From an uncultured Clostridia bacterium (GTDB taxonomy: Bacteria; Bacillota_I; Bacilli_A; RF39; UBA660): a DNA stretch of 64,000 nucleotides. Position 1 is the stretch's first letter. Every line of letters begins with the position of its first letter. The DNA is taken from NCBI GenBank assembly GCA_945871105.1, contig CAMBUO010000001.1, positions 59,120-123,119 on the forward strand. Reading direction: 5' to 3'. The notes beneath the pieces were generated by a model. That model was not told where the DNA came from. It made no database searches and was given only the letters and a program-made list of their open reading frames with translations. The translations under genes were made by a program, and so were the position numbers. Positions 1,281 through 38,914 of this stretch are shown here, in pieces.

Positions 1281-2675
1281 TTACCTTCTTTTTATTATTT
1301 TTTTAAATAAAGTATTTATTAAACTTTTATTTAGATAATATGTATAAATAAAAGCTATTAATAAAGAAATTATAGATAAGAATATATTCTTAGTATAGTA
1401 AATACCTGTTACTAGGAAAAGAATTAATAAACTTAAGGGTAAATATTTATCTTGATCTAAGATAATATATTTTTTTAATTTATAATTACGATAGAAAAAG
1501 ATTACAATATAACTTATTAAAGTACCTAGAATAGGTGCATATAATCCAATATATTTTATTAAACTAAAACCTATTAGTAAATTAATAATAGTTGCTACAA
1601 TAGTAGTTTTAGCTAATATCTTAGTATCTTTATAAGCTGAGAAGATACCACTAGAAAAATTAGATAAATTAGAAAAATAAACTGATATAATCATAAGTGG
1701 TATATAGTAATAAGCTTCTCGATAAGCATTTTTTACTAGAATATTAAAGATAAAAGGTAAAATAGCTATTAATAAAATTGATACACAGATTAAGAAATGT
1801 CTTAAATTAAGATAAACACTATTATAAAATTCATCTTTATCATCTTTGTTAACTACTTTAGAAGCTGATTCTTTCCAAGAAATATTGAAGTAACTATAAC
1901 AAGTATTAATAATAGTTGGAAAACGATTACCAACAGAATAAACACCATTTTTAGCACTTCCTAAAACATTAGTAATTAATAATCTATCTGTTAAAGCTAT
2001 AGCATTCCAAGAGATACTATTTGGTACTAATGGAAAAGAATACTTAATCATTTCTTTAATTTTTTTCTTGTTTAATCCTTTAAATTTAATTAATTTAGGC
2101 ATACCTATTTTAAATATTAACCAAAGAGAAACTAAACTATTAGCAATTATATATGATAAGAATAAACTAGATAATCCCATTTTTAAAACAGCTATAAATA
2201 AGATATTTAGTAATATATTAAAGAAACTTGAAAAGAAACAAAAAACAGAATAGATTTTAAATTTTCCTAGGCCTCTAGAACAAGATCCGGCTAAAGATGA
2301 TAAAATACTAGCTAAGATATAAAAGATTAAATAAATAGTAAACGGATACTTGATAATTGAACCAACAATAAGAATCAAAAGACTCCAAATAAAATAACTA
2401 ATTAAAGAAAAAACTGTAGTTATCGAAAATACTTCTCCTTTATCTTTATCAGTTTTAGCATCAATTAAAAAACGAAACATCCCCTCTTCCATTAATAACG
2501 TAACACAAGGAATTAAAAAGATAGAAATCGTATTTAATAAGTCATACTGACCATATTCACTTGTTGTTAAAAGAGTGGTATATAAAGGCAAAAGCAAAAA
2601 ACTAACTAATTGGGTTGAAAATTTACCAATTGATATAATTAAAGTATTTTTTATTAATTCTTTTTTTTGATTCAT
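1281..2675 (-). CDS. Polytopic MOP/Wzx-type polysaccharide or oligosaccharide flippase family protein
   Basis: 464 aa, about 12-14 hydrophobic helices, basic N-terminus, AGGA RBS. The overall architecture matches the Wzx/MurJ/SpoVB superfamily. Confidence 0.5.
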   Translation of the reverse strand: MNQKKELIKNTLIISIGKFSTQLVSFLLLPLYTTLLTTSEYGQYDLLNTISIFLIPCVTLLMEEGMFRFLIDAKTDKDKGEVFSITTVFSLISYFIWSLLILIVGSIIKYPFTIYLIFYILASILSSLAGSCSRGLGKFKIYSVFCFFSSFFNILLNILFIAVLKMGLSSLFLSYIIANSLVSLWLIFKIGMPKLIKFKGLNKKKIKEMIKYSFPLVPNSISWNAIALTDRLLITNVLGSAKNGVYSVGNRFPTIINTCYSYFNISWKESASKVVNKDDKDEFYNSVYLNLRHFLICVSILLIAILPFIFNILVKNAYREAYYYIPLMIISVYFSNLSNFSSGIFSAYKDTKILAKTTIVATIINLLIGFSLIKYIGLYAPILGTLISYIVIFFYRNYKLKKYIILDQDKYLPLSLLILFLVTGIYYTKNIFLSIISLLIAFIYTYYLNKSLINTLFKKIIKRR

Positions 2676-2866
2676 GATATTATCCTTTCTAAGTAATTAT
2701 AACATTATTTAGGTAATTAGTAAATGAGAAAATATTTTTTAAATCTATTAATAAAAAATAACTACTACAAATAATAATTGTAATAAGTTATTCATATTTT
2801 ATTTAATATACTCTACACTTTTCTAAAAATATTAGATAATAAATAAAATAACTTGACAATATTTTT

Positions 2867-3211
2867 TTATCGGATAATTATAGATTCAAAATATTTTTCT
2901 TGAAACTCAGTTAATGCTCTTATTTCATCATCTGAATAATCTTTACCGTCTTTAGAAACAATTAACTTATCATCATCATCATTTATTCTATGTATTATAG
3001 CTATTACTTTGCCAACACTTGAAGAAACAGGTTCAACTTCTCCAAGTAAATAAGCATCTAATTCTTCTCCATCACCACTTAATGTATTAGGAATAAATCC
3101 ATAGTTTAGCATATATATAAATCCATGTTTAGGGTGTCTAGATCCTAATTGTCTATCAATTTTTATATTTACTTCTTTTCCTAAATAATCATTAACACTT
3201 GTATTTTCCAT
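2867..3211 (-). CDS. Short inorganic-pyrophosphatase-like protein (family I PPase fold, truncated paralog)
   Basis: Contains HPKHGFIYMLNYGFIPNTLSGDGEELDAYLLG, to be compared with the canonical YPxNYGFIxxTLxxDGDPxDxLV of family I PPases. The true ppa at 59150-59659 carries DGDPVDILV. This protein has only 114 aa and lacks the first ~40 residues of a PPase. AAAGGAG RBS. Confidence 0.5.
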   Translation of the reverse strand: MENTSVNDYLGKEVNIKIDRQLGSRHPKHGFIYMLNYGFIPNTLSGDGEELDAYLLGEVEPVSSSVGKVIAIIHRINDDDDKLIVSKDGKDYSDDEIRALTEFQEKYFESIIIR

Positions 3212-3380
3212 TTTTAACTCCTTTTAATTTAATTTATTATAATGTTTATCCTTATTGTTTTGTATATTTCTTTTTATTTCTATTTTTATCTGATACATCA
3301 AAATATTTTGTGTTATCTCTTTATTTTGCTTCAAGTGTTATACAACTAATTTCTAATAAAATAAAAGATAATTTTTTGTC

Positions 3381-3409
3381 TTGAATTTATAAATATTTAT
3401 TAGTATAAT
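3381..3409 (+). promoter_or_regulatory. Sigma-A type promoter (TTGAAT-17-TATAAT) for the small peptide gene
   Basis: TTGAAT at 3381-3386, 17-nt spacer, TATAAT at 3404-3409. Confidence 0.5.
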
Positions 3410-3424
3410 GATAGTGAGGTGTAT

Positions 3425-3511
3425 ATGAAAAAGAAAACAACTAAAATAATTACTATTGGTTTATTAATAATTATGGTAGCTGCATTTATTTGTGGACTAA
3501 TTTATATGTAA
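3425..3511 (+). CDS. Small hydrophobic peptide (28 aa, MKKKTTKIITIGLLIIMVAAFICGLIYM), single predicted TM helix
   Basis: ATG at 3425 lies 4 nt after GTGAGGTG (3414-3421). The peptide has a basic N-terminus followed by a hydrophobic stretch, ends at TAA 3509-3511, and is followed directly by a hairpin terminator. The gene is not in the ORF track because it is too short. Confidence 0.4.
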   Translation: MKKKTTKIITIGLLIIMVAAFICGLIYM

Positions 3512-3513
3512 AA

Positions 3514-3540
3514 AAACTTCGTTTGAAGTTTTTTTATTTG
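3514..3540. terminator. Bidirectional intrinsic terminator shared by the small peptide gene (+) and mscL (-)
   Basis: AAACTTC-GTT-GAAGTTT hairpin flanked by A-run and T-run. The mscL stop codon at 3534-3536 abuts it. Confidence 0.6.
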
Positions 3541-3914
3541 TCTTTTAATAAATCTCTTATTTCTTCTAGTAGTTTAATATCATCTGGTTTTTTAGGTTCT
3601 TCTTTCTTTTCTTCTTTCTTCTTACTTAATTTATTGAATATTTTTACAACAATGAAAATAGTTAGAGCAACAATTAGAAAATCAACAATATTTTGGATAA
3701 ATGATCCAACCATAATACTGGCATTTCCAACAGTTACCTTAATTCCTTCAAAGTGAATTCCTCCGATAATCACACCAACAAGTGGCATGATAATATCATC
3801 AACTAAACTTGAGACAATTTTATTAAAAGCATTTCCAATGACAACAGCAATAGCTAAATCTAAAACATTTCCTTTAGCAATAAATTTTTTAAATTCTTCT
3901 AAAAATTTTTTCAT
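3534..3914 (-). CDS. mscL: Large-conductance mechanosensitive channel
   Basis: [47 protein letters not shown] is the canonical MscL N-terminus, and the protein has two TM helices. Confidence 0.9.
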
Positions 3915-5510: not shown

Positions 5511-8190
5511 TTAAGATACCATTTTTAACTGTTTCAAGAGATTCATCTAATTTATTAATATCTTTTCCAGCACCTCTAGCAAATTTATTAGATCCTCCCC
5601 CATTACCTCCTGTTAATTTAGTTATATCTTTAATAATTTTACCAGCATCAATTAAAGAATTACTACGAGCTATAAAGTTGATATTTTCTTGATTTATATT
5701 AGCAAATAAGATAAACATATTCGGATATTTATTAACTAAAGTATCAGCTATATTTTTTAAAGTATCATTATCTTCATTATCAATTTTCATGATTAAAAGA
5801 TTTAAGTCTTTTTCTTTTAAAATATTCTTTTCATATTTTGATAAATCATTAATACTTAATTCACTCTTTAATTTTAAGTATTTCTTTTCTAATTCATGAA
5901 CTGAGTTAGCTACATAATTATCTTTATTTTTTAAATTTATAATATCTTGGTAAGAACTAGGTTTAATATTATCAAGAGTTAAATCAAGGGTTAAAGTTAT
6001 TCCTTCTTCTTTAGCTTTTTTTATTAATTCTTTTGCTTTCATGATATTTTTAATAATATTTTGATTATAAGGATTAGCTATGGTTAATAAATTTTCTTCT
6101 ACTTTATCTTTGGTAGCTCCAGTTATTCTAAATGTGTTACTTCCTTTATTTTCTAAAGAAATAATAGCAAATTTTTTGATATCTTTCGTATTTTTAACAT
6201 GACAGCCTCCACATAATTCTTTGGATTTACCAATTTCTACTAATCGTACTTTATCTTTGTATTTATCAGCAAATAAAGCCATTACTTCATTTGTATCAAT
6301 ATCACTTAAATTTTTAATAGTTGTTTCTCTTTGGTAACTATTTTTAATATAATCATTAACAAAGTTTTCTACTTTTACTAAAGTTTCATCAGTTATTTTT
6401 CCATGATAATTAAAATCAAATCTTAAATAAGTATCTGTTACTTTTGAACCTACTTGATAGATATCTTTAGCAATTAAGGTTTGTAGAGCAAGTTGTAAGA
6501 TATGAACAGTTGAATGATTGGCTTCTATGTTTAATCTTCTTTCTTTATCAACTATTGATTCTACTTTATCATCTAATTTAATAGTTCCATGTAATACTTT
6601 AATTTTATGAAGATGTTGACCATTTGGAGCTTTAAAAACATCTAAAACTTTCGCTTTAAAATTATCACCTTGAATGATTCCAGTATCACTTATCTCTCCA
6701 CCTGATTCAGCATAGAAACAAGTTTTATCAAGAACAACTATTCCTTCTTCATCTAAACTATCAACAAATTTATCATTTTTAATAAGAGCAATTACTTCAC
6801 CTTTTTGTTCATATACTTCATAAATAAATTCTGATTCATCTTTATAATTTAAAAGCATTTCATTTTGACTTTTAAAAGATTCTATTTGTTTTTGGTTATT
6901 CTTCGACAATTCTTTTTGTTCTTGCATACATTTTAAGAATTCTTCTTTATCTGTGGTGTAACCTTTTTCAGCAAGTATTTCTAAAGTAAGTTCAAAAGGA
7001 AAACCATAAGTATCATATAATTTAAATACATCATTTCCTTTAATTTTATTATCAAGTGATTCATCCATTAATTCTAGTAATTTCTTTTCTCCTTTATCAA
7101 GCGTTTTTAAAAATAAATCTTCTTCTTGCATGATAAGAGCTTTCACATGAGCTTGTTTATTTAATAGATAAGGATAAACATCTTTCATATTTAAAACTAC
7201 TGAATCAACTAGTTTATACATAAATTTTCCTTTTAAGCCTAGTTTTTTACCATAACGAACACTTCTTCTTAAAAGTCGTCTTAAAATATAACCACGACCA
7301 ACATTATCAAAATTAGCTCCATCAGCAAGGGCAAAAGTTAAAGAACGAACATGATCAGCAATAACTTTATAAGGCATAGAACCATCATATAAAGTTCCAC
7401 TTAATTCTTCAACCATCTTAATAGTTGGCATGAATAAGTCGGTATCAAAGTTACTATCAGCATCTTGAAAAATACAAGCCCATCTTTCAAGTCCTGCCCC
7501 AGTATCAATATTTTTACTTGGTAATTCTTGATAGTCTTTTCGATCAATACCTTCTTTAGAGTTAAATTGACTAAAAACATTATTCCAAATTTCTACATAA
7601 CGTTCATTATCTTCACCTTTTTGAAAATGTTCTAAGGCCTTGCCATCAAAGTCATATTTTTCCCCACGATCAAAGAAAATTTCCGTATCAGGACCACATG
7701 GACCTTCCCCTATTTCCCAGAAATTATCTTCAAGTTTAGTAATATGATCTTCTGGTACGCCTAAACTTACCCATTTATTATAAGTATCTTTATCTTCAGG
7801 ATAAACCGTAAAATAAAGTTTATCAATTGGAATATTAAACCATTTAGGACTTGTTAAAAGTTCAAAAGCAAATTCAATCGCTTCATTTTTAAAATAATCA
7901 CCAATGGAAAAGTTTCCCATCATTTCGAAGAAAGTATGATGACGACGGGTTACTCCAACATTTTCAATATCATTAGTACGAATACACTTTTGTATATTTG
8001 TAACTCTTCTATTATCGGGAACAACTGATCCATCAAAATATTTTTTTAAAGGTGTAACTCCAGCATTAATCCAAAGCAAAGAATCATCATCTTTCGGTAT
8101 TAATGGTGCACTTTCTACTACTTTATGACCTTTACTTTGAAAGAAGTCAAGCCACATTTTTCTAATTTCTAAACTAGTCATTTTTTTCAT
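5503..8190 (-). CDS. alaS: Alanine--tRNA ligase
   Basis: Class II aaRS motifs (FFQSKGHKVVESAPLIP…DDSLLWINAGV), C-terminal editing and C-Ala domains, about 895 aa. The first M in the track is a TTG, so the start was taken at ATG 8188-8190. Confidence 0.95.
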   Translation of the reverse strand: MKKMTSLEIRKMWLDFFQSKGHKVVESAPLIPKDDDSLLWINAGVTPLKKYFDGSVVPDNRRVTNIQKCIRTNDIENVGVTRRHHTFFEMMGNFSIGDYFKNEAIEFAFELLTSPKWFNIPIDKLYFTVYPEDKDTYNKWVSLGVPEDHITKLEDNFWEIGEGPCGPDTEIFFDRGEKYDFDGKALEHFQKGEDNERYVEIWNNVFSQFNSKEGIDRKDYQELPSKNIDTGAGLERWACIFQDADSNFDTDLFMPTIKMVEELSGTLYDGSMPYKVIADHVRSLTFALADGANFDNVGRGYILRRLLRRSVRYGKKLGLKGKFMYKLVDSVVLNMKDVYPYLLNKQAHVKALIMQEEDLFLKTLDKGEKKLLELMDESLDNKIKGNDVFKLYDTYGFPFELTLEILAEKGYTTDKEEFLKCMQEQKELSKNNQKQIESFKSQNEMLLNYKDESEFIYEVYEQKGEVIALIKNDKFVDSLDEEGIVVLDKTCFYAESGGEISDTGIIQGDNFKAKVLDVFKAPNGQHLHKIKVLHGTIKLDDKVESIVDKERRLNIEANHSTVHILQLALQTLIAKDIYQVGSKVTDTYLRFDFNYHGKITDETLVKVENFVNDYIKNSYQRETTIKNLSDIDTNEVMALFADKYKDKVRLVEIGKSKELCGGCHVKNTKDIKKFAIISLENKGSNTFRITGATKDKVEENLLTIANPYNQNIIKNIMKAKELIKKAKEEGITLTLDLTLDNIKPSSYQDIINLKNKDNYVANSVHELEKKYLKLKSELSINDLSKYEKNILKEKDLNLLIMKIDNEDNDTLKNIADTLVNKYPNMFILFANINQENINFIARSNSLIDAGKIIKDITKLTGGNGGGSNKFARGAGKDINKLDESLETVKNGILNG

Positions 8191-33375: not shown

Positions 33376-35526
33376 TCACACCTTTCTTAAACTCTTATGA
33401 CTATAGATTAATGTTTTAATACCATAAGGTAATTTAAAAGCAATTTTTAATAAAGTACGACTTTTATCTTTCTTGTTTTCAATTATTTCAACAACACTTC
33501 CCATACCAAAGTTTTCATGATAAACAATATCTCCTACTTTATAATCAAGATCAATATCCTTATAGTTATCTGAAACATTAACCTTCTCGTTAATATTATT
33601 ATAATCTATTTTTTCTTTTTTTGCATCTAAATTTACAAATTTTTCTTGATTAGTTTTTAATAAATCTTGATCGATTTCTTGAATAAAACGACTAACTCCA
33701 TTTACTTGTTCTTGACCATACATTAATCTAATTCTCGCATTGGATAAATATAATTTCTTTTTACATCTAGTAATTGCTACATAGCAAAGTCTTCTCTCTT
33801 CCTCAATTTCACTCTCTGAGAATAAACAATTTTGATGAGGAAATAACCCTTCTTCTAAACCAACCACAAAAACATAATCAAATTCTAATCCTTTAACAGC
33901 ATGAATAGTCATTAAACTAACAGCATTATTTTCTTCTTTTATCTCCGTATTATCACTAATTAAACTGACATTAAGTAAAAAATCTTCTAAAGAAATAACC
34001 CCTGCTTCATCTTCAAAAGCTTTAGCAACAGATTTAAATTCTTCTAAGTTTTCTAATCGAACATCAGCTTCTAAACTATGCTCATTAATTAAATCCTGTC
34101 GCATTCCTGTTTTATCTAAAACTAAATCAATAAATTCTACTAAAGGCATTGTATCTTTCTTTTGTTTTAATTCTTCAATCATATTTTTAAATACTAACTC
34201 TTTACCAGAATCAATAGCATCATATAAACTAGTATTAAAAAGAAGTGATCTGTCATATAAATTACTAATTGTTTTTAAACCAATTCCTCTTTTTGGAACA
34301 TTGATAATTCTTTCTAAACTAACATTATCATTACTATTATAAATAAGTCTTAAATAAGCTAATAAATTTTTAATTTCCATTCGACTGTAGAAATTCAATC
34401 CTCCTATTATTTTATAAGGAATATTAGCTTTTAATAAACCATCTTCAAAGACTCTTGATTGGGCATTAGTTCGATATAAAATAACAATATCATTTAAAGA
34501 AATTTGATTATCAATTAATTTCTTAATCTCAGAAACAACAAATCTTACTTCATCCATCCCACTCGTTGCCCTATAATAAGTTATTTTTTCTCCTAATCCC
34601 AAATTAGAATATAAATTCTTTTCTTTACGATTAATATTATTTTTAATAACCGAATTAGCTGCATTTAAAATAGTTTGACAACTACGATAATTCTCTTCTA
34701 AACGAATAACTTTCGTATTATGATAATCTTTTTCAAAGTTTAAAATATTTTGATAATTAGCTCCTCTAAATCCATAAATAGCTTGATCAGCATCTCCTAC
34801 ACAACAAATATTTTTATATTTACTAGCTAATAACTTTGTTAATTTATATTGAGCTTCATTAGTATCTTGATATTCATCAATTAAAATATATTTATATCTT
34901 TCTTGATACAAATTTAAAATATCTTTTTTTAAAGTAAATAATTTAATTGGTAAAACTAATAAATCATCAAAATCTAAAGAATTATTTTTTAATAAATCAT
35001 CTTCATATTTTTTATATACTTCTAAAACTATTTTATCAAAATCCGTTAAAGCATATTTAGCATAATTATTACTATCTACTAAATCATTTTTTAATTTACT
35101 AATTTGATTTCTAATAGCTCTTGGGTTATATTTATCCGGATCAAGATTCTTTTCTTTTAAAATCTTTTTAATAATAGTTAAGGAATCCTCACTATCAAAA
35201 ACAACAAAGTTTTTATCATATCCTAAATATTCATAGTTTTCTTTTATTATTTTTAAACCAAAACTATGAAAAGTTGATATTTGCATATATTTAGAGGAAA
35301 AACCTAATAGTTTACTAACTCGATCTTTCATCTCTTTTGCTGCTTTATTAGTAAAAGTAATAGCTAATATATTATCAGGTGAAATACCCTCCTCAATTAA
35401 ATAGGCAATTCTTGTTGTTAATACTTTTGTTTTCCCAGATCCTGCTCCTGCTAATACTAATAAAGGACCATTTATATATTTAACTGCTTCTATTTGTTCT
35501 TTATTTAATTTTTCTAATATGTCCAT
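33376..35526 (-). CDS. pcrA: ATP-dependent DNA helicase PcrA (UvrD family)
   Basis: GPLLVLAGAGSGKT Walker A, DEYQDTN, and the classic pcrA-ligA neighbourhood. Confidence 0.9.
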   Translation of the reverse strand: MDILEKLNKEQIEAVKYINGPLLVLAGAGSGKTKVLTTRIAYLIEEGISPDNILAITFTNKAAKEMKDRVSKLLGFSSKYMQISTFHSFGLKIIKENYEYLGYDKNFVVFDSEDSLTIIKKILKEKNLDPDKYNPRAIRNQISKLKNDLVDSNNYAKYALTDFDKIVLEVYKKYEDDLLKNNSLDFDDLLVLPIKLFTLKKDILNLYQERYKYILIDEYQDTNEAQYKLTKLLASKYKNICCVGDADQAIYGFRGANYQNILNFEKDYHNTKVIRLEENYRSCQTILNAANSVIKNNINRKEKNLYSNLGLGEKITYYRATSGMDEVRFVVSEIKKLIDNQISLNDIVILYRTNAQSRVFEDGLLKANIPYKIIGGLNFYSRMEIKNLLAYLRLIYNSNDNVSLERIINVPKRGIGLKTISNLYDRSLLFNTSLYDAIDSGKELVFKNMIEELKQKKDTMPLVEFIDLVLDKTGMRQDLINEHSLEADVRLENLEEFKSVAKAFEDEAGVISLEDFLLNVSLISDNTEIKEENNAVSLMTIHAVKGLEFDYVFVVGLEEGLFPHQNCLFSESEIEEERRLCYVAITRCKKKLYLSNARIRLMYGQEQVNGVSRFIQEIDQDLLKTNQEKFVNLDAKKEKIDYNNINEKVNVSDNYKDIDLDYKVGDIVYHENFGMGSVVEIIENKKDKSRTLLKIAFKLPYGIKTLIYSHKSLRKV

Positions 35527-35559
35527 AAATACCTCTATTTGATTATACTATAAATAAAA

Positions 35560-35590
35560 AGAAAAAGGAACAATTTGTTCCTTTAATTAC
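35560..35590. terminator. Bidirectional hairpin terminator
   Basis: AAAGGAACA-ATT-TGTTCCTTT with flanking T/A runs. Confidence 0.55.
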
Positions 35591-35601
35591 ATATATTAAT
35601 T

Positions 35602-36540
35602 TTATTTTTTATTATTTAATTTATTATAAATCGGTAATAAAACTTTTTCATATCTATAAACTAATAAGTTATAATAAACCAATCTTTGTTCTTTCGAAAA
35701 TACTTGAATATTATTATATTCATATGGAATTGTATCAAAAAAATCTTTAATTTTCTTTAAATCAATTTTCGGTACTATTCTTAAAATAGCTTGATTTAAT
35801 TCTTCATTTTGCATACTTTCTATATATTTTAAAGGATTAATTTTTTTATCATTTAATGAAAAAACTGAAATACTACTATCATATGCTAATTGTTTAAATT
35901 TATTTTCATTATCTAAAAAAGATTGTAATTTAGAATTATCAGATTTATTACAAAATGCAGCACCATTATCATAAACAGGAGCTAGTCTTAGAACAGAATT
36001 TTCTTTATTTAGTACTAATCCCCAATTTCTTTCATTTCGATCATTATTACCGATTAAAGCATCAACAACAAACATATCATAAAATCTTTTTCTTAAATCT
36101 TCTATTTTTCTAAAATAAATATTTGTTGACATTAAAATAAATAATTCTTGTAAATCTTCACTTTGTGAATAATTTGTTGAAATTTTCTCTAATTCATTTT
36201 CAGTTTCCAGACTGTATTCATTTTTTATTTCATTATAACTTAGGATTATTTCACTTGAATCTAGAAAATCTTTGCAAGCTACTACTAATTTATTATCTTT
36301 AATGCCTAACTTAGTTTCATGAACATCAATACCAATTATTTTATAAATATTAGAACCTAAATATTCGGATAGAGGGGTTGTTGTATACGATAGATTTTTA
36401 ACATCCATACTTTTAGTTGTTTTTGGATATTTTAAAAACCATCTTTCATTATCAAACAAAACACCACTTTTACTACCGCCGTGACCACCATATGCAATAC
36501 CACTACTTTTTAAATTATTAAAATTTTCTATCTTAATCAT
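35602..36540 (-). CDS. HipA-like serine/threonine kinase lacking the HipA N-terminal subdomain (HipT-like)
   Basis: IAYGGHGGSKSGVLFDNERWFLKYP compares with HipA SVAGAQEKTALLRIGNDWCIPKG. DALIGNNDRNERNWGLV compares with the HipA catalytic loop LIGATDGHAKNFSV. RLAPVYDNGAAF compares with LTPFYDIISAF. 312 aa. Confidence 0.6.
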   Translation of the reverse strand: MIKIENFNNLKSSGIAYGGHGGSKSGVLFDNERWFLKYPKTTKSMDVKNLSYTTTPLSEYLGSNIYKIIGIDVHETKLGIKDNKLVVACKDFLDSSEIILSYNEIKNEYSLETENELEKISTNYSQSEDLQELFILMSTNIYFRKIEDLRKRFYDMFVVDALIGNNDRNERNWGLVLNKENSVLRLAPVYDNGAAFCNKSDNSKLQSFLDNENKFKQLAYDSSISVFSLNDKKINPLKYIESMQNEELNQAILRIVPKIDLKKIKDFFDTIPYEYNNIQVFSKEQRLVYYNLLVYRYEKVLLPIYNKLNNKK

Positions 36541-36787
36541 ATAAACCTCCGTATTTAAATAAAATCATTTTATAATCATAACTAGTTATATAACCTCTAG
36601 AATATAAAGTTTTAGAAGTTATTTCTAATTCATCAAATACTAAATCGTAGTTAAACCAATCACCAGTTTTATCATATTCTTCTAATTTTTTTATTAAGTC
36701 AACTAAAGTCTTTGGTAATTTTTGATAATTATATTTTATATTATGATCATATAATGGTACATCAGATTTAAAGGGATCTTTTTCCAT
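36533..36787 (-). CDS. Small acidic protein (84 aa) translationally coupled to the HipA-like kinase, candidate cognate antitoxin or HipS-like partner
   Basis: ATG at 36785-36787 with AGGAG 8 nt upstream and a TGcTATAAT extended -10 further upstream. Its stop overlaps the kinase start (ATGATTAA, 8-nt overlap). No HTH recognisable. Confidence 0.4.
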   Translation of the reverse strand: MEKDPFKSDVPLYDHNIKYNYQKLPKTLVDLIKKLEEYDKTGDWFNYDLVFDELEITSKTLYSRGYITSYDYKMILFKYGGLYD

Positions 36788-36880
36788 ATAACACACTCCT
36801 ATAATGATTATAGCATATTTTTAAATAAATCATTATTTTATTACGAAAAAATTAGTTAAAATTTTAACTTTTAACTAATC

Positions 36881-38914
36881 TTATTCTTGAGTTTCTATTT
36901 GGTAACCACATTCATTACAAACAATACTATCTTGTTTTTTAACTAACATACCACCACATTTTGGACATTTATTACCAGTTGGTTCATACCAATAAGCCGT
37001 TTTACAATCTGGATAATGATTACATCCATAGAAAACTTTTCCTTTTTTACTATGTCTTTCAACTATTTGACCATTGCAATTTGGACAATTAATAATTACT
37101 TTTTGCTCTTTTATTTCCTTTTTTACATACTTACAATTTGGATAATCACTACAAGCTGTAAATGAGCCAAACTTACCTTTACGAATTACTAAAGGACTTC
37201 CACATTCGGGACAAATTTCTCCTGTTTCTTCTGTTTTTTCCTTAGGCATCGTTTCAAAAGCTTTCTTTAAAGTTTCATCAAATACTTGATAAAAATCATT
37301 TAAAACATCGAGATTATTTATTTTACCCTCTGCTATTTCGTCTAAATCTTTTTCCATATTAGCTGTATATTTAACATTGATAATATTACTAAAACTTTCT
37401 TGTAATTTATCAGTTACTTGAATACCAATATCCGTTGGTTTAAACTTTTTATCTTCAATTGTTACATAGCCACGATCTTTAATATTAGCCATAATAGTTG
37501 CGTAAGTTGAAGGTCTACCAATTCCAAGTTCTTCCATTTCATGAATTAATTTAGCTTCTGTGTATCTAGCTTTTGGTTTTGTTTGATGTTCTTCGTATTT
37601 TAAATCATCAGATTTTATTAAAGTATGAAGTTTACTTGTTAAATCCGGTAAAACAGTATCTTTTGTATCTTCAAACTCACTATAAACTTTTAAATAACCA
37701 TCAAAAGTAATAACGGAACCCGTTGCTTTAAACTTATAATCATTATTATCAAGAACAATCGTTGTTTGTAAAGTTTTAGCATCACTCATTAAAGATGATA
37801 ATGTTCTTTTATAAATTAAATTATATAATTTAAATTCATCATTGGTTAAATATTTTTTTATACTATTAGGTTCTCTTAAAATACTTGTTGGACGAATAGC
37901 TTCATGAGCATCTTGAACATTATCAGTTTTCTTACTTTTTTTAACGTAACCAACGTATTTTTGACCAAAATTATCTTTAATATAATTAAATGTTGGTCTT
38001 GTAAATTCATCACTTAAACGAATAGAATCTGTTCTCATATAAGTAATTAAACCAACTGTTTCGCATCCTATATCAATACCTTCATACATCTTTTGCGCTA
38101 ACATCATCGTCTTTTTAGCACTAAAACCTAATTTAGTTGATGCTTCTTGTTGCATAGTTGAAGTTGTAAAAGGAAACTTACTAGTTTTATTTTTACTTTT
38201 GGAATCAATACTTTCTAAATAAAAATCAGGATTTAATTTACTTAAAATATTATTAACTTCCTCTAAACTTTTAATTTCCAAGTCATCAGTTTTATATTTA
38301 AAAATATCAGCTGAAAAATCAGGAAATATGGCTGTTATAGAATAATATTTTTCAGGAATAAAAGCTTCGATTTCTCTTTCTCTATCAACAATTAATTTTA
38401 AAGCCACACTTTGAACACGTCCGGCACTAGTTCCATTTGTCTTTGATTGCATTAATCTACTTAAACGAAAACCAATAATTCGATCTAAAAATCTTCTTGT
38501 TTCTTGACTTTTTACTAAATTATAATCAATTTTACGAGGATTTTTAATTCCTTCTAAAACTTTATCTTTCGTGATTTCATAAAATAAAACTCGATCATAT
38601 TTATTGTCTTTAATACCTAAAGTATCATATAAATGCCAAGAAATGGCTTCCCCTTCGCGGTCGGGGTCGGTTGCTAAATAAACTTTATCAGCTTCTTTAA
38701 CTAACTTTTTTAATTCTTTAATTACTTTATTTTTTCCTTTAATAGGAACGTAATTTGGTTTAAAACCATTTTCAATATCTATACCAAGACCATATTTACC
38801 AGTTGTTGCTAAATCTCTTATATGACCAATACTAGAAACAACTTTATAATTTGATCCTAAATATTTTTCAATTGTTTTACTTTTAGCTGGGGATTCAACT
38901 ATTACTAGATCCAT
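36881..38914 (-). CDS. topA: DNA topoisomerase I
   Basis: N-terminal TOPRIM (MDLVIVESPAKSKTIEKYLG), active-site Tyr region, and three C-terminal C4 zinc ribbons. Confidence 0.95.
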   Translation of the reverse strand: MDLVIVESPAKSKTIEKYLGSNYKVVSSIGHIRDLATTGKYGLGIDIENGFKPNYVPIKGKNKVIKELKKLVKEADKVYLATDPDREGEAISWHLYDTLGIKDNKYDRVLFYEITKDKVLEGIKNPRKIDYNLVKSQETRRFLDRIIGFRLSRLMQSKTNGTSAGRVQSVALKLIVDREREIEAFIPEKYYSITAIFPDFSADIFKYKTDDLEIKSLEEVNNILSKLNPDFYLESIDSKSKNKTSKFPFTTSTMQQEASTKLGFSAKKTMMLAQKMYEGIDIGCETVGLITYMRTDSIRLSDEFTRPTFNYIKDNFGQKYVGYVKKSKKTDNVQDAHEAIRPTSILREPNSIKKYLTNDEFKLYNLIYKRTLSSLMSDAKTLQTTIVLDNNDYKFKATGSVITFDGYLKVYSEFEDTKDTVLPDLTSKLHTLIKSDDLKYEEHQTKPKARYTEAKLIHEMEELGIGRPSTYATIMANIKDRGYVTIEDKKFKPTDIGIQVTDKLQESFSNIINVKYTANMEKDLDEIAEGKINNLDVLNDFYQVFDETLKKAFETMPKEKTEETGEICPECGSPLVIRKGKFGSFTACSDYPNCKYVKKEIKEQKVIINCPNCNGQIVERHSKKGKVFYGCNHYPDCKTAYWYEPTGNKCPKCGGMLVKKQDSIVCNECGYQIETQE

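Follow-up and report, generated by a model that had tools for sequence, protein, structure and literature searches.

Kinases of the HipA type serve as a model in the study of persistence and of toxin-antitoxin systems, and HipS, the small protein of HipBST systems, is an alpha/beta protein homologous to the first N-terminal subdomain (N-subdomain-1) of HipA. To our knowledge, the kinase CtkA (JHP0940; PDB 3AKJ, 3AKK and 3AKL) has been studied only as a virulence factor of Helicobacter pylori. Here we analyse a stretch of 64,000 nucleotides (hereafter the window) from contig CAMBUO010000001.1 of an uncultured Clostridia bacterium (GTDB lineage RF39, UBA660), in which a two-gene unit on the minus strand of the chromosome, between topA and pcrA, encodes a CtkA-family kinase preceded by a small protein that we call the partner. 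The kinase family is already known and named, whereas the partner family is newly recognised and unannotated.

A published phylogeny of HipA kinases defines the kinase families by gene organisation and lists ten of them (PMC8262856). The short Hip kinases of its clade XI have Stl-like, resolvase-like, HipS-HIRAN or HipS partners (Gerdes et al. 2021, PMC8262856), and the survey mentions neither CtkA, nor Helicobacter, nor a partner of the type described here (PMC8262856). The PADLOC candidate defence system PDC-M03 consists of a HipA-like kinase and a HIRAN protein (PMC13245101). The ctkA gene of H. pylori lies in a variable slot of the tfs3 integrative and conjugative element (ICE) in which a fic gene can stand instead, and the C-terminal tail shared by H. 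pylori CtkA, Fic and PZ39 is absent or divergent in the homologues of other gut bacteria (PMC5536186). Our literature searches returned no paper in which CtkA is linked with a partner gene or with toxin-antitoxin systems, nothing under 'CtkA family', 'CtkA-like' or 'CtkA homolog', and nothing relevant on HipA-like kinases with phage defence or on HipA with toxin-antitoxin and Mollicutes; the sole paper found to name CtkA together with HipA deals with the cargo of nematode Mavericks.

The two open reading frames (ORFs) and their 8-nt overlap, which the initial annotation of this DNA had described, can be read directly from the sequence:

36533..36787, minus strand: partner gene, 84 aa (ORF; ATG at 36787, stop ending at 36533)
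35602..36540, minus strand: CtkA-family (HipA_C superfamily) kinase gene, 312 aa (ORF; without HipA N-subdomain-1)
36533..36540, minus strand: 8-nt overlap ATGATTAA of the kinase start codon and the partner stop codon (sequence)

The same annotation had taken the larger protein for a HipA-superfamily kinase without the N-terminal subdomain, and this assignment stands: Pfam HipA_C (PF07804) matches residues 31-219 with E 4.1e-10 (40.1 bits, gathering cutoff 30.5), and the kinase profile alignment holds. Among solved structures, H. pylori CtkA is the nearest relative by a wide margin (PDB 3AKJ; phmmer E 1.4e-36, residues 16-274), and it was also the sole match (E 1.1e-47) of a profile of 14 kinase homologues against the PDB. 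The AlphaFold2 (AF2) model of the kinase, with a predicted local distance difference test score (pLDDT) of 80, was matched by Foldseek to 3akk with template modelling (TM) scores of 0.84/0.88 and E 5.9e-20, followed by Legionella HipT and then HipA structures at E ~1e-6 and TM 0.4-0.6. We found 1950 kinase homologues, and those 60% identical to the window kinase carry the NCBI name 'CtkA family protein [Bacilli bacterium]'. By sequence and predicted fold, the kinase is a CtkA-family protein of the same length class as CtkA itself, with the Gly-rich loop, the Lys, the DRxxxN catalytic loop and the D-x-G motif in common, and both genes are accessory and variably present. The two proteins differ in that the window kinase is only about 25-35% identical to CtkA, has Asn in place of the catalytic-loop His and has a chromosomal gene flanked by topA and pcrA instead of one on an ICE that encodes type IV secretion; going by the description of other gut-bacterial homologues (PMC5536186), it is also without the H. 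pylori-specific C-terminal tail. The association with an ICE and type IV secretion and the C-terminal tail are traits of the H. pylori protein, not of the whole CtkA family.

The active-site motifs are encoded as follows:

36463..36492, minus strand: codons of the Gly-rich (ATP-binding) loop, Y17-GGHGGSKSG-26 (alignment with CtkA and homologues)
36025..36042, minus strand: codons of the catalytic loop, D167-R-N-E-R-N172 (aligned with CtkA DRHNGN; D167 and N172 invariant in the family alignment)
35962..35970, minus strand: codons of the Mg-binding D191-N-G193 (aligned with CtkA D-C-G; invariant in the family alignment)

K37, D167, N172 and D191 are all retained, and the family alignment shows no variation in the Gly-rich loop, K37, D167...N172 and D191-N-G; in the model the Gly-rich loop has low pLDDT, as expected of a flexible loop. 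With all ATP-binding and catalytic residues in place, the protein is predicted to be a Ser/Thr(/Tyr) kinase. The replacement of the catalytic-loop His by Asn had been noticed early and is borne out by the comparison with D-R-H-N-G-N of CtkA; it is not a local defect, because the homologues compared from Bacilli and Clostridia have Asn here too; His is found in CtkA and in the homologues of Veillonella and Alistipes. At its N-terminus, MIKIENFNNLKSSG, the kinase bears no obvious signal peptide when judged by eye (it was not computed). Among PADLOC models the kinase matched those of PDC-M03A best (E 1.8e-29), that is, the kinase component of this candidate defence system, and no HIRAN protein (component B) is encoded at the window locus. 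NCBIfam gave only noise for kinase and partner, including YjjJ at E 0.056; in PHROGs the kinase matched only kinase families of unknown function and the partner only noise, and a search of a phage collection gave two weak kinase matches only.

The label 'HipT-like', given to the kinase at the outset, had to be dropped: by sequence the HipT chain 7ab3_C reaches only E 0.36, and by fold HipT(Lp) only TM 0.5-0.6, against E 1.4e-36 and TM 0.84-0.88 for CtkA. A HipBST system minus HipB, in which the kinase would be a HipT and the small ORF would encode a divergent HipS, is suggested by the combination of a short HipA-like kinase without N-subdomain-1 and a small partner gene, and by the rank of HipT second to CtkA as structural neighbour. 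This explanation is highly improbable in the face of the marginal HipT scores, the kinase profile that finds CtkA alone in the PDB, and an all-helical partner that matches the HipS chains in the PDB neither in sequence nor in fold; HipBST membership of the window pair is refuted by the kinase clade, the partner fold and the absence of HipB. As in the HipBST systems of E. coli O127 and Legionella, a short HipA-like kinase without N-subdomain-1 goes with a small separate protein that elsewhere is fused to the kinase N-terminus, much as HipS matches the HipA N-subdomain, and this parallel suggests a similar split-kinase logic. The window kinase nevertheless lies outside the HipT clade, its three-helix partner is unrelated to HipS, and the unit has two genes instead of three, without a HipB gene. 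Canonical HipBA of E. coli K-12 shares the HipA_C catalytic core, to which the sequence similarity is confined, and the partner-first bicistronic layout; the window kinase differs from HipA in lacking N-subdomain-1 (its Gly-rich loop begins at residue 17), and the unit in lacking a helix-turn-helix (HTH) antitoxin. Indeed, no HTH gene, and no HipB, was found in or adjoining the operon, as had been claimed; topA and pcrA have just these two genes between them, and neither of the two proteins matched an HTH model. The short kinases of clade XI (HipG, HipM, HipI and HipJ) likewise consist of the kinase core only (~280-320 aa), are encoded in bicistronic modules and show reversals of gene order (PMC8262856), whereas the window partner matches none of the partner types described there.

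The AF2 model of the partner, built with 31 homologues, is confident (pLDDT 92.4, predicted TM score (pTM) 0.82) and in it residues 1-25 form an extended, conserved N-terminal segment, after which helices span residues 26-41, 44-63 and 69-80. Foldseek against the PDB gave nothing better than E = 2, all of it generic three-helix matches; the partner and 34 family members had no match in Pfam, NCBIfam, PADLOC or PDB sequences, the partner and 33 family members matched no PDC-M03B or HIRAN model, the partner profile found no HipS chain in the PDB, and profile and sequence searches detected no HIRAN, HipS, Stl or resolvase similarity. The early impression that the small protein does not resemble HipS thus agrees with its three-helix model, and by sequence and model the partner is neither HipS nor an HTH protein of the HipB type. 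Its description as acidic needs tempering, as it is only mildly so (isoelectric point 5.06, 15 acidic versus 12 basic residues).

The frame and sequence of the partner ORF are preserved in more than 40 distinct loci, with D14, L24, P25, D43, Y47, K78, Y79 and G80 conserved in an alignment in which the frame is kept, and the ratio of nonsynonymous to synonymous substitution rates (dN/dS) is ~0.33 against a 78%-identical relative; the small ORF is therefore conserved as coding in homologous loci, a condition on which the initial annotation had made its proposal depend. A word-index search for the partner returned 10 relatives only; kinase neighbours in other contigs include upstream ORFs of 84-86 aa with the same 8-nt overlap, and a profile run exhaustively against 1.84 billion representatives returned 286 clusters at E <= 1e-3, almost all of 70-90 aa. 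The proposal of a novel partner accordingly holds in that the protein is unannotated, and fails in that it is already a widespread, conserved companion of CtkA-type kinases. Taken together, the alignments and searches point to a real, conserved, widespread but unannotated protein family that accompanies CtkA-type kinases, and conservation of this extent is not something that chance would explain. We also considered whether the C-terminal KYGGLYD is conserved solely as carrier of the GGAGG ribosome-binding sequence of the kinase gene, and rejected this as a full explanation because the entire 84-aa partner is conserved and folds confidently.

To quantify the linkage, we took 72 loci from a scan of species-representative genomes, using scripted ORF extraction and a hidden Markov model (HMM) of the small protein. 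The partner lies upstream of the kinase in 46/72 loci, downstream in 3/72 and is fused to the kinase N-terminus in 2/72; by state of the two genes, the loci divide as follows:

40/72 loci: partner upstream, intact kinase
2/72 loci: partner downstream, intact kinase
2/72 loci: partner fused in frame to the kinase N-terminus
7/72 loci: partner intact, kinase ORF disrupted by frameshifts or stops (L028, L042, L057, L063, L064, L067, L087)
21/72 loci: intact kinase, no partner within the flank examined

Pairwise identities of partners and kinases are tightly correlated (r = 0.96; Mantel test, 0/2000 permutations), and the 44 unique pairs occur in at least 36 distinct flank contexts; a 78%-identical pair, for example, sits elsewhere, between an HD-domain gene and rpsP. 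Partner and kinase co-diverge, and the conserved mobile unit is the pair itself. The closest locus from the scan has 61% kinase identity, and either the species of the window is missing from the species-representative collection or its representative has a kinase-less allele.

The pair is commonest in uncultured gut Bacilli of humans, rabbits and goats, and occurs also in Lachnospiraceae, Veillonella and Megamonas; partners beside or fused to kinases were found in Bacilli, Clostridia, Negativicutes, Bacteroidota, Spirochaetota and Campylobacterota. One Veillonella contig (L083) has two partner-kinase modules ~3 kb apart (2637-3843 and 5929-6742). A second partner homologue is present in L084 (326-631), and a second, divergent kinase homologue in L021 (3-875).

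The pair is flanked and served by the following features, all on the same strand:

36881..38914, minus strand: topA, flanking gene
36846..36878, minus strand: AT-only inverted repeat TTAGTTAAAA...TTTTAACTAA followed by T6, directly after the topA stop
36807..36815, minus strand: extended -10 promoter element TGCTATAAT, 5' of the partner gene (read from sequence)
36796..36800, minus strand: Shine-Dalgarno sequence AGGAG of the partner gene, 8 nt 5' of the ATG
36546..36550, minus strand: Shine-Dalgarno sequence GGAGG of the kinase gene, 5 nt 5' of the kinase ATG, within the partner codons for the conserved C-terminal YGG
35555..35584, minus strand: terminator-like hairpin AAAGGAACAAATTGTTCCTTT (35564..35584) with T-run, 3' of the kinase gene, containing G+C (terminator scan)
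33376..35526, minus strand: pcrA, flanking gene

The promoter and Shine-Dalgarno sequence that the small ORF was first said to own are present in the sequence, and the same TGCTATAAT element occurs at the equivalent position in L014, L036 and L045; in a consensus promoter scan, promoter-like sites were not above those in shuffled sequence, in such AT-rich DNA. The terminator scan found one site, the hairpin 3' of the kinase gene, where 0.1 were expected. The AT-only repeat is probably the topA terminator and went unscored, since the scan needs at least three G-C pairs. With its own promoter, two ribosome-binding sites and a terminator around it, the pair constitutes a separate transcription unit. 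Although the longest partner ORF would begin at a GTG at 36796, we take the ATG at 36787 as the start because homologues begin MEKDPFK. The 8-nt overlap, seen identically in most homologous loci, is predicted to couple translation of the kinase to that of the partner. The G+C content of the window is 24.6%, its long ORFs under table 11 show use of the standard code, and an Rfam scan of it gave no match.

Variable presence of the pair between strains, which had been raised as something to check, was confirmed at the very same site. In the topA-pcrA locus of another sample (L014, 3890-4360, to be compared with window 35560-36900), ~40 nt stand in place of the kinase ORF, the partner gene carries a 1-nt deletion leading to a 48-aa product, the GGAGG of the kinase is mutated to GGATG, and the hairpin 3' of the kinase is still present. 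We rejected the interpretation of L014 as an empty site: it is a decayed remnant in which the partner gene is present in frameshifted form. At least four distinct frameshifted partner variants (P0007-P0010) also appeared in the protein search. The partner-kinase unit is thus gained, lost and pseudogenised between strains. The seven broken kinase ORFs listed above could be real pseudogenes or errors of metagenome assembly.

Fusion proteins relate the partner to the kinase and to other domains. A 445-aa protein (P0382) contains the partner domain followed by the kinase, single-ORF partner-kinase fusions are encoded at L069:186-1427 and L071:1163-2404, and such fusions occur in a contig assigned to Bacteroidaceae; another protein, P0361, resembles a partner-kinase fusion with the kinase core deleted. 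In a different arrangement, a 142-aa protein (P0329; L088:916-2316) joins a Cro/C1 HTH (HTH_26) to the partner domain and is encoded directly upstream of a CtkA-family kinase 40% identical to that of the window. The HTH and partner domain upstream of a kinase resembles the classic antitoxin architecture, while the window partner is without an HTH. The partner domain may serve other effectors too: in the 285-aa protein P0294 (L089:3001-4564), encoded downstream of a LlaJI-type restriction gene, it is C-terminal and is followed by a gene for a 224-aa multi-pass membrane protein, not a kinase.

Several relatives are plasmid-borne. On a Treponema bryantii plasmid, the kinase gene overlaps that of a 91-aa partner (HMM E 1e-11), and on the Campylobacter fetus plasmid pCfviMP1 (L093, 2281-4268) a partner of 68 aa (E 3.5e-12) is encoded in one operon with a kinase and a Fic protein. 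The kinase of this C. fetus operon and H. pylori CtkA share 54% identity, so the partner reaches the closest available relative of CtkA. A Megamonas funiformis plasmid (L092, 975-3817) carries VbhA-Fic, a second VbhA-like gene, an unrelated 136-aa gene that overlaps the kinase, and then an Fst type I toxin. The Fic genes beside these plasmid-encoded kinases appear to echo the alternative ctkA/fic slot of the H. pylori tfs3 ICE. Such neighbourhoods are also what might be seen if the kinase were an effector, exported or delivered by contact to act on other cells, as proposed for CtkA with tfs3 type IV secretion, and the partner its immunity protein or secretion chaperone. CtkA is indeed the closest solved relative, ctkA and fic alternate in the ICE slot and share a tail with each other and PZ39 (PMC5536186), and Fic or VbhA/Fic genes adjoin the C. 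fetus operon and the Megamonas kinase. Yet no secretion-system genes surround the window pair or those of the Bacilli loci that were examined, the H. pylori-specific tail is absent or divergent in other gut-bacterial homologues (PMC5536186), and the kinase has no signal peptide apparent to the eye. An exported effector with its immunity protein fits the plasmid and ICE relatives, not the chromosomal locus of the window, and for the pair as a whole we regard it as improbable.

We favour the reading of the pair as a type II toxin-antitoxin-like or abortive-infection-like module of a kinase and its inhibitor, with a new partner family, and give it a probability of about 0.5. The partner would, we infer, bind the kinase directly and hold it inactive, and in this would fill the functional role that HipS or HipB has in Hip systems. 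Partner-first translational coupling would provide inhibitor in excess; titration or degradation of the partner, for example upon phage infection or loss of the element, would free the kinase, which would then phosphorylate an essential cellular target and arrest growth. We adopt this reading because of the partner-first coupling, the reversal of gene order, the fusions with kinase and HTH and the co-divergence, and because of the mobility of the unit, its carriage on plasmids and ICEs among toxin-antitoxin genes, its multiple copies and the frequent kinase pseudogenes. The match of the kinase to the kinase component of PDC-M03 and the plasmid carriage beside Fic/VbhA and Fst toxin-antitoxin genes lend it further support. 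The unit resembles type II toxin-antitoxin systems in general in being a compact bicistron with the small partner first, an overlap and its own promoter and terminator, and in being patchy, mobile, strain-variable, plasmid-borne and present in several copies; it differs from them in that the window partner is without a DNA-binding domain (an HTH fusion exists in the relative L088) and in that the kinase persists without an adjacent partner (21/72 loci, among them L045, where the partner is a pseudogene).

Several observations weigh against a toxin-antitoxin-like module. Autoregulation would be unexplained, the window partner having no DNA-binding domain, and H. pylori CtkA has been described as a translocated, host-acting effector and not as a toxin (PMC5536186). 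Many of the 72 loci come from metagenome-assembled genomes, and some of the frameshifts may be assembly errors. The 21 intact kinases without a partner in the flank examined retain every catalytic residue, except for one substitution each in L061 and L074, and are scattered among the paired kinases in the tree; at several of these loci all that is left of the partner gene is its final codons, with the GGAGG of the kinase in them. At L045 (1060-1296; compared with L036:2600-3030), the partner is a pseudogene with an early stop and an internal deletion that has kept its TGCTATAAT promoter and its 3' end, and the kinase is intact (310 aa) and 83% identical to paired kinases. Kinases left intact after loss of the partner have arisen several times. 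A lethal toxin should not outlive its antitoxin, unless there is a second partner copy in trans or some other silencing of the kinase; in the partner-less genomes there is either a second copy in trans or a kinase that is not unconditionally toxic.

In the second of these cases the pair may be an ordinary accessory kinase system, not one for addiction or defence: the kinase would serve signalling without being toxic, and the partner would be a separate subunit that regulates or targets it, whether as activator, as substrate adaptor or as split-off N-terminal domain, and that is required for its activity or specificity instead of inhibiting it. The natural N-terminal fusions of partner to kinase (L069, L071, P0382) are in keeping with such a subunit and parallel HipA, whose own N-subdomain belongs to the enzyme (PMC8262856); so are the repeated loss of the partner from beside intact kinases and the position of the window pair among housekeeping genes. 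A cassette that is mobile, patchy, multi-copy, plasmid-borne and often pseudogenised would, however, be unusual for a housekeeping regulator, the HTH-fused variant of the partner is antitoxin-like, and the partner-first order with overlapping start and stop codons is the usual layout of antitoxin and toxin. On balance we consider a regulatory subunit unlikely, while treating it as the main rival to the toxin-antitoxin-like module.

The comparative-genomic pattern of kinase and partner is well supported; the function of the module we infer. If CtkA-type kinases normally travel with a dedicated partner, the HipA superfamily gains a partner family and a type of module, and such a module would be abundant in small-genome gut Bacilli that are poor in other accessory genes. 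We further propose, tentatively and with somewhat less than an even chance of being right, that the whole CtkA family, the 'pro-inflammatory virulence kinase' of H. pylori included, consists at root of kinases of the toxin-antitoxin or defence type, whose neutraliser is a new three-helix family with a HipS-like role and an unrelated fold. This would add an eleventh gene organisation to the HipA superfamily and would represent convergent control of a split kinase. A dedicated partner as the normal companion of CtkA-type kinases would also provide a testable idea of how these kinases are restrained, and it would then be worth asking whether the effects of CtkA on the host are secondary to an intrabacterial role.

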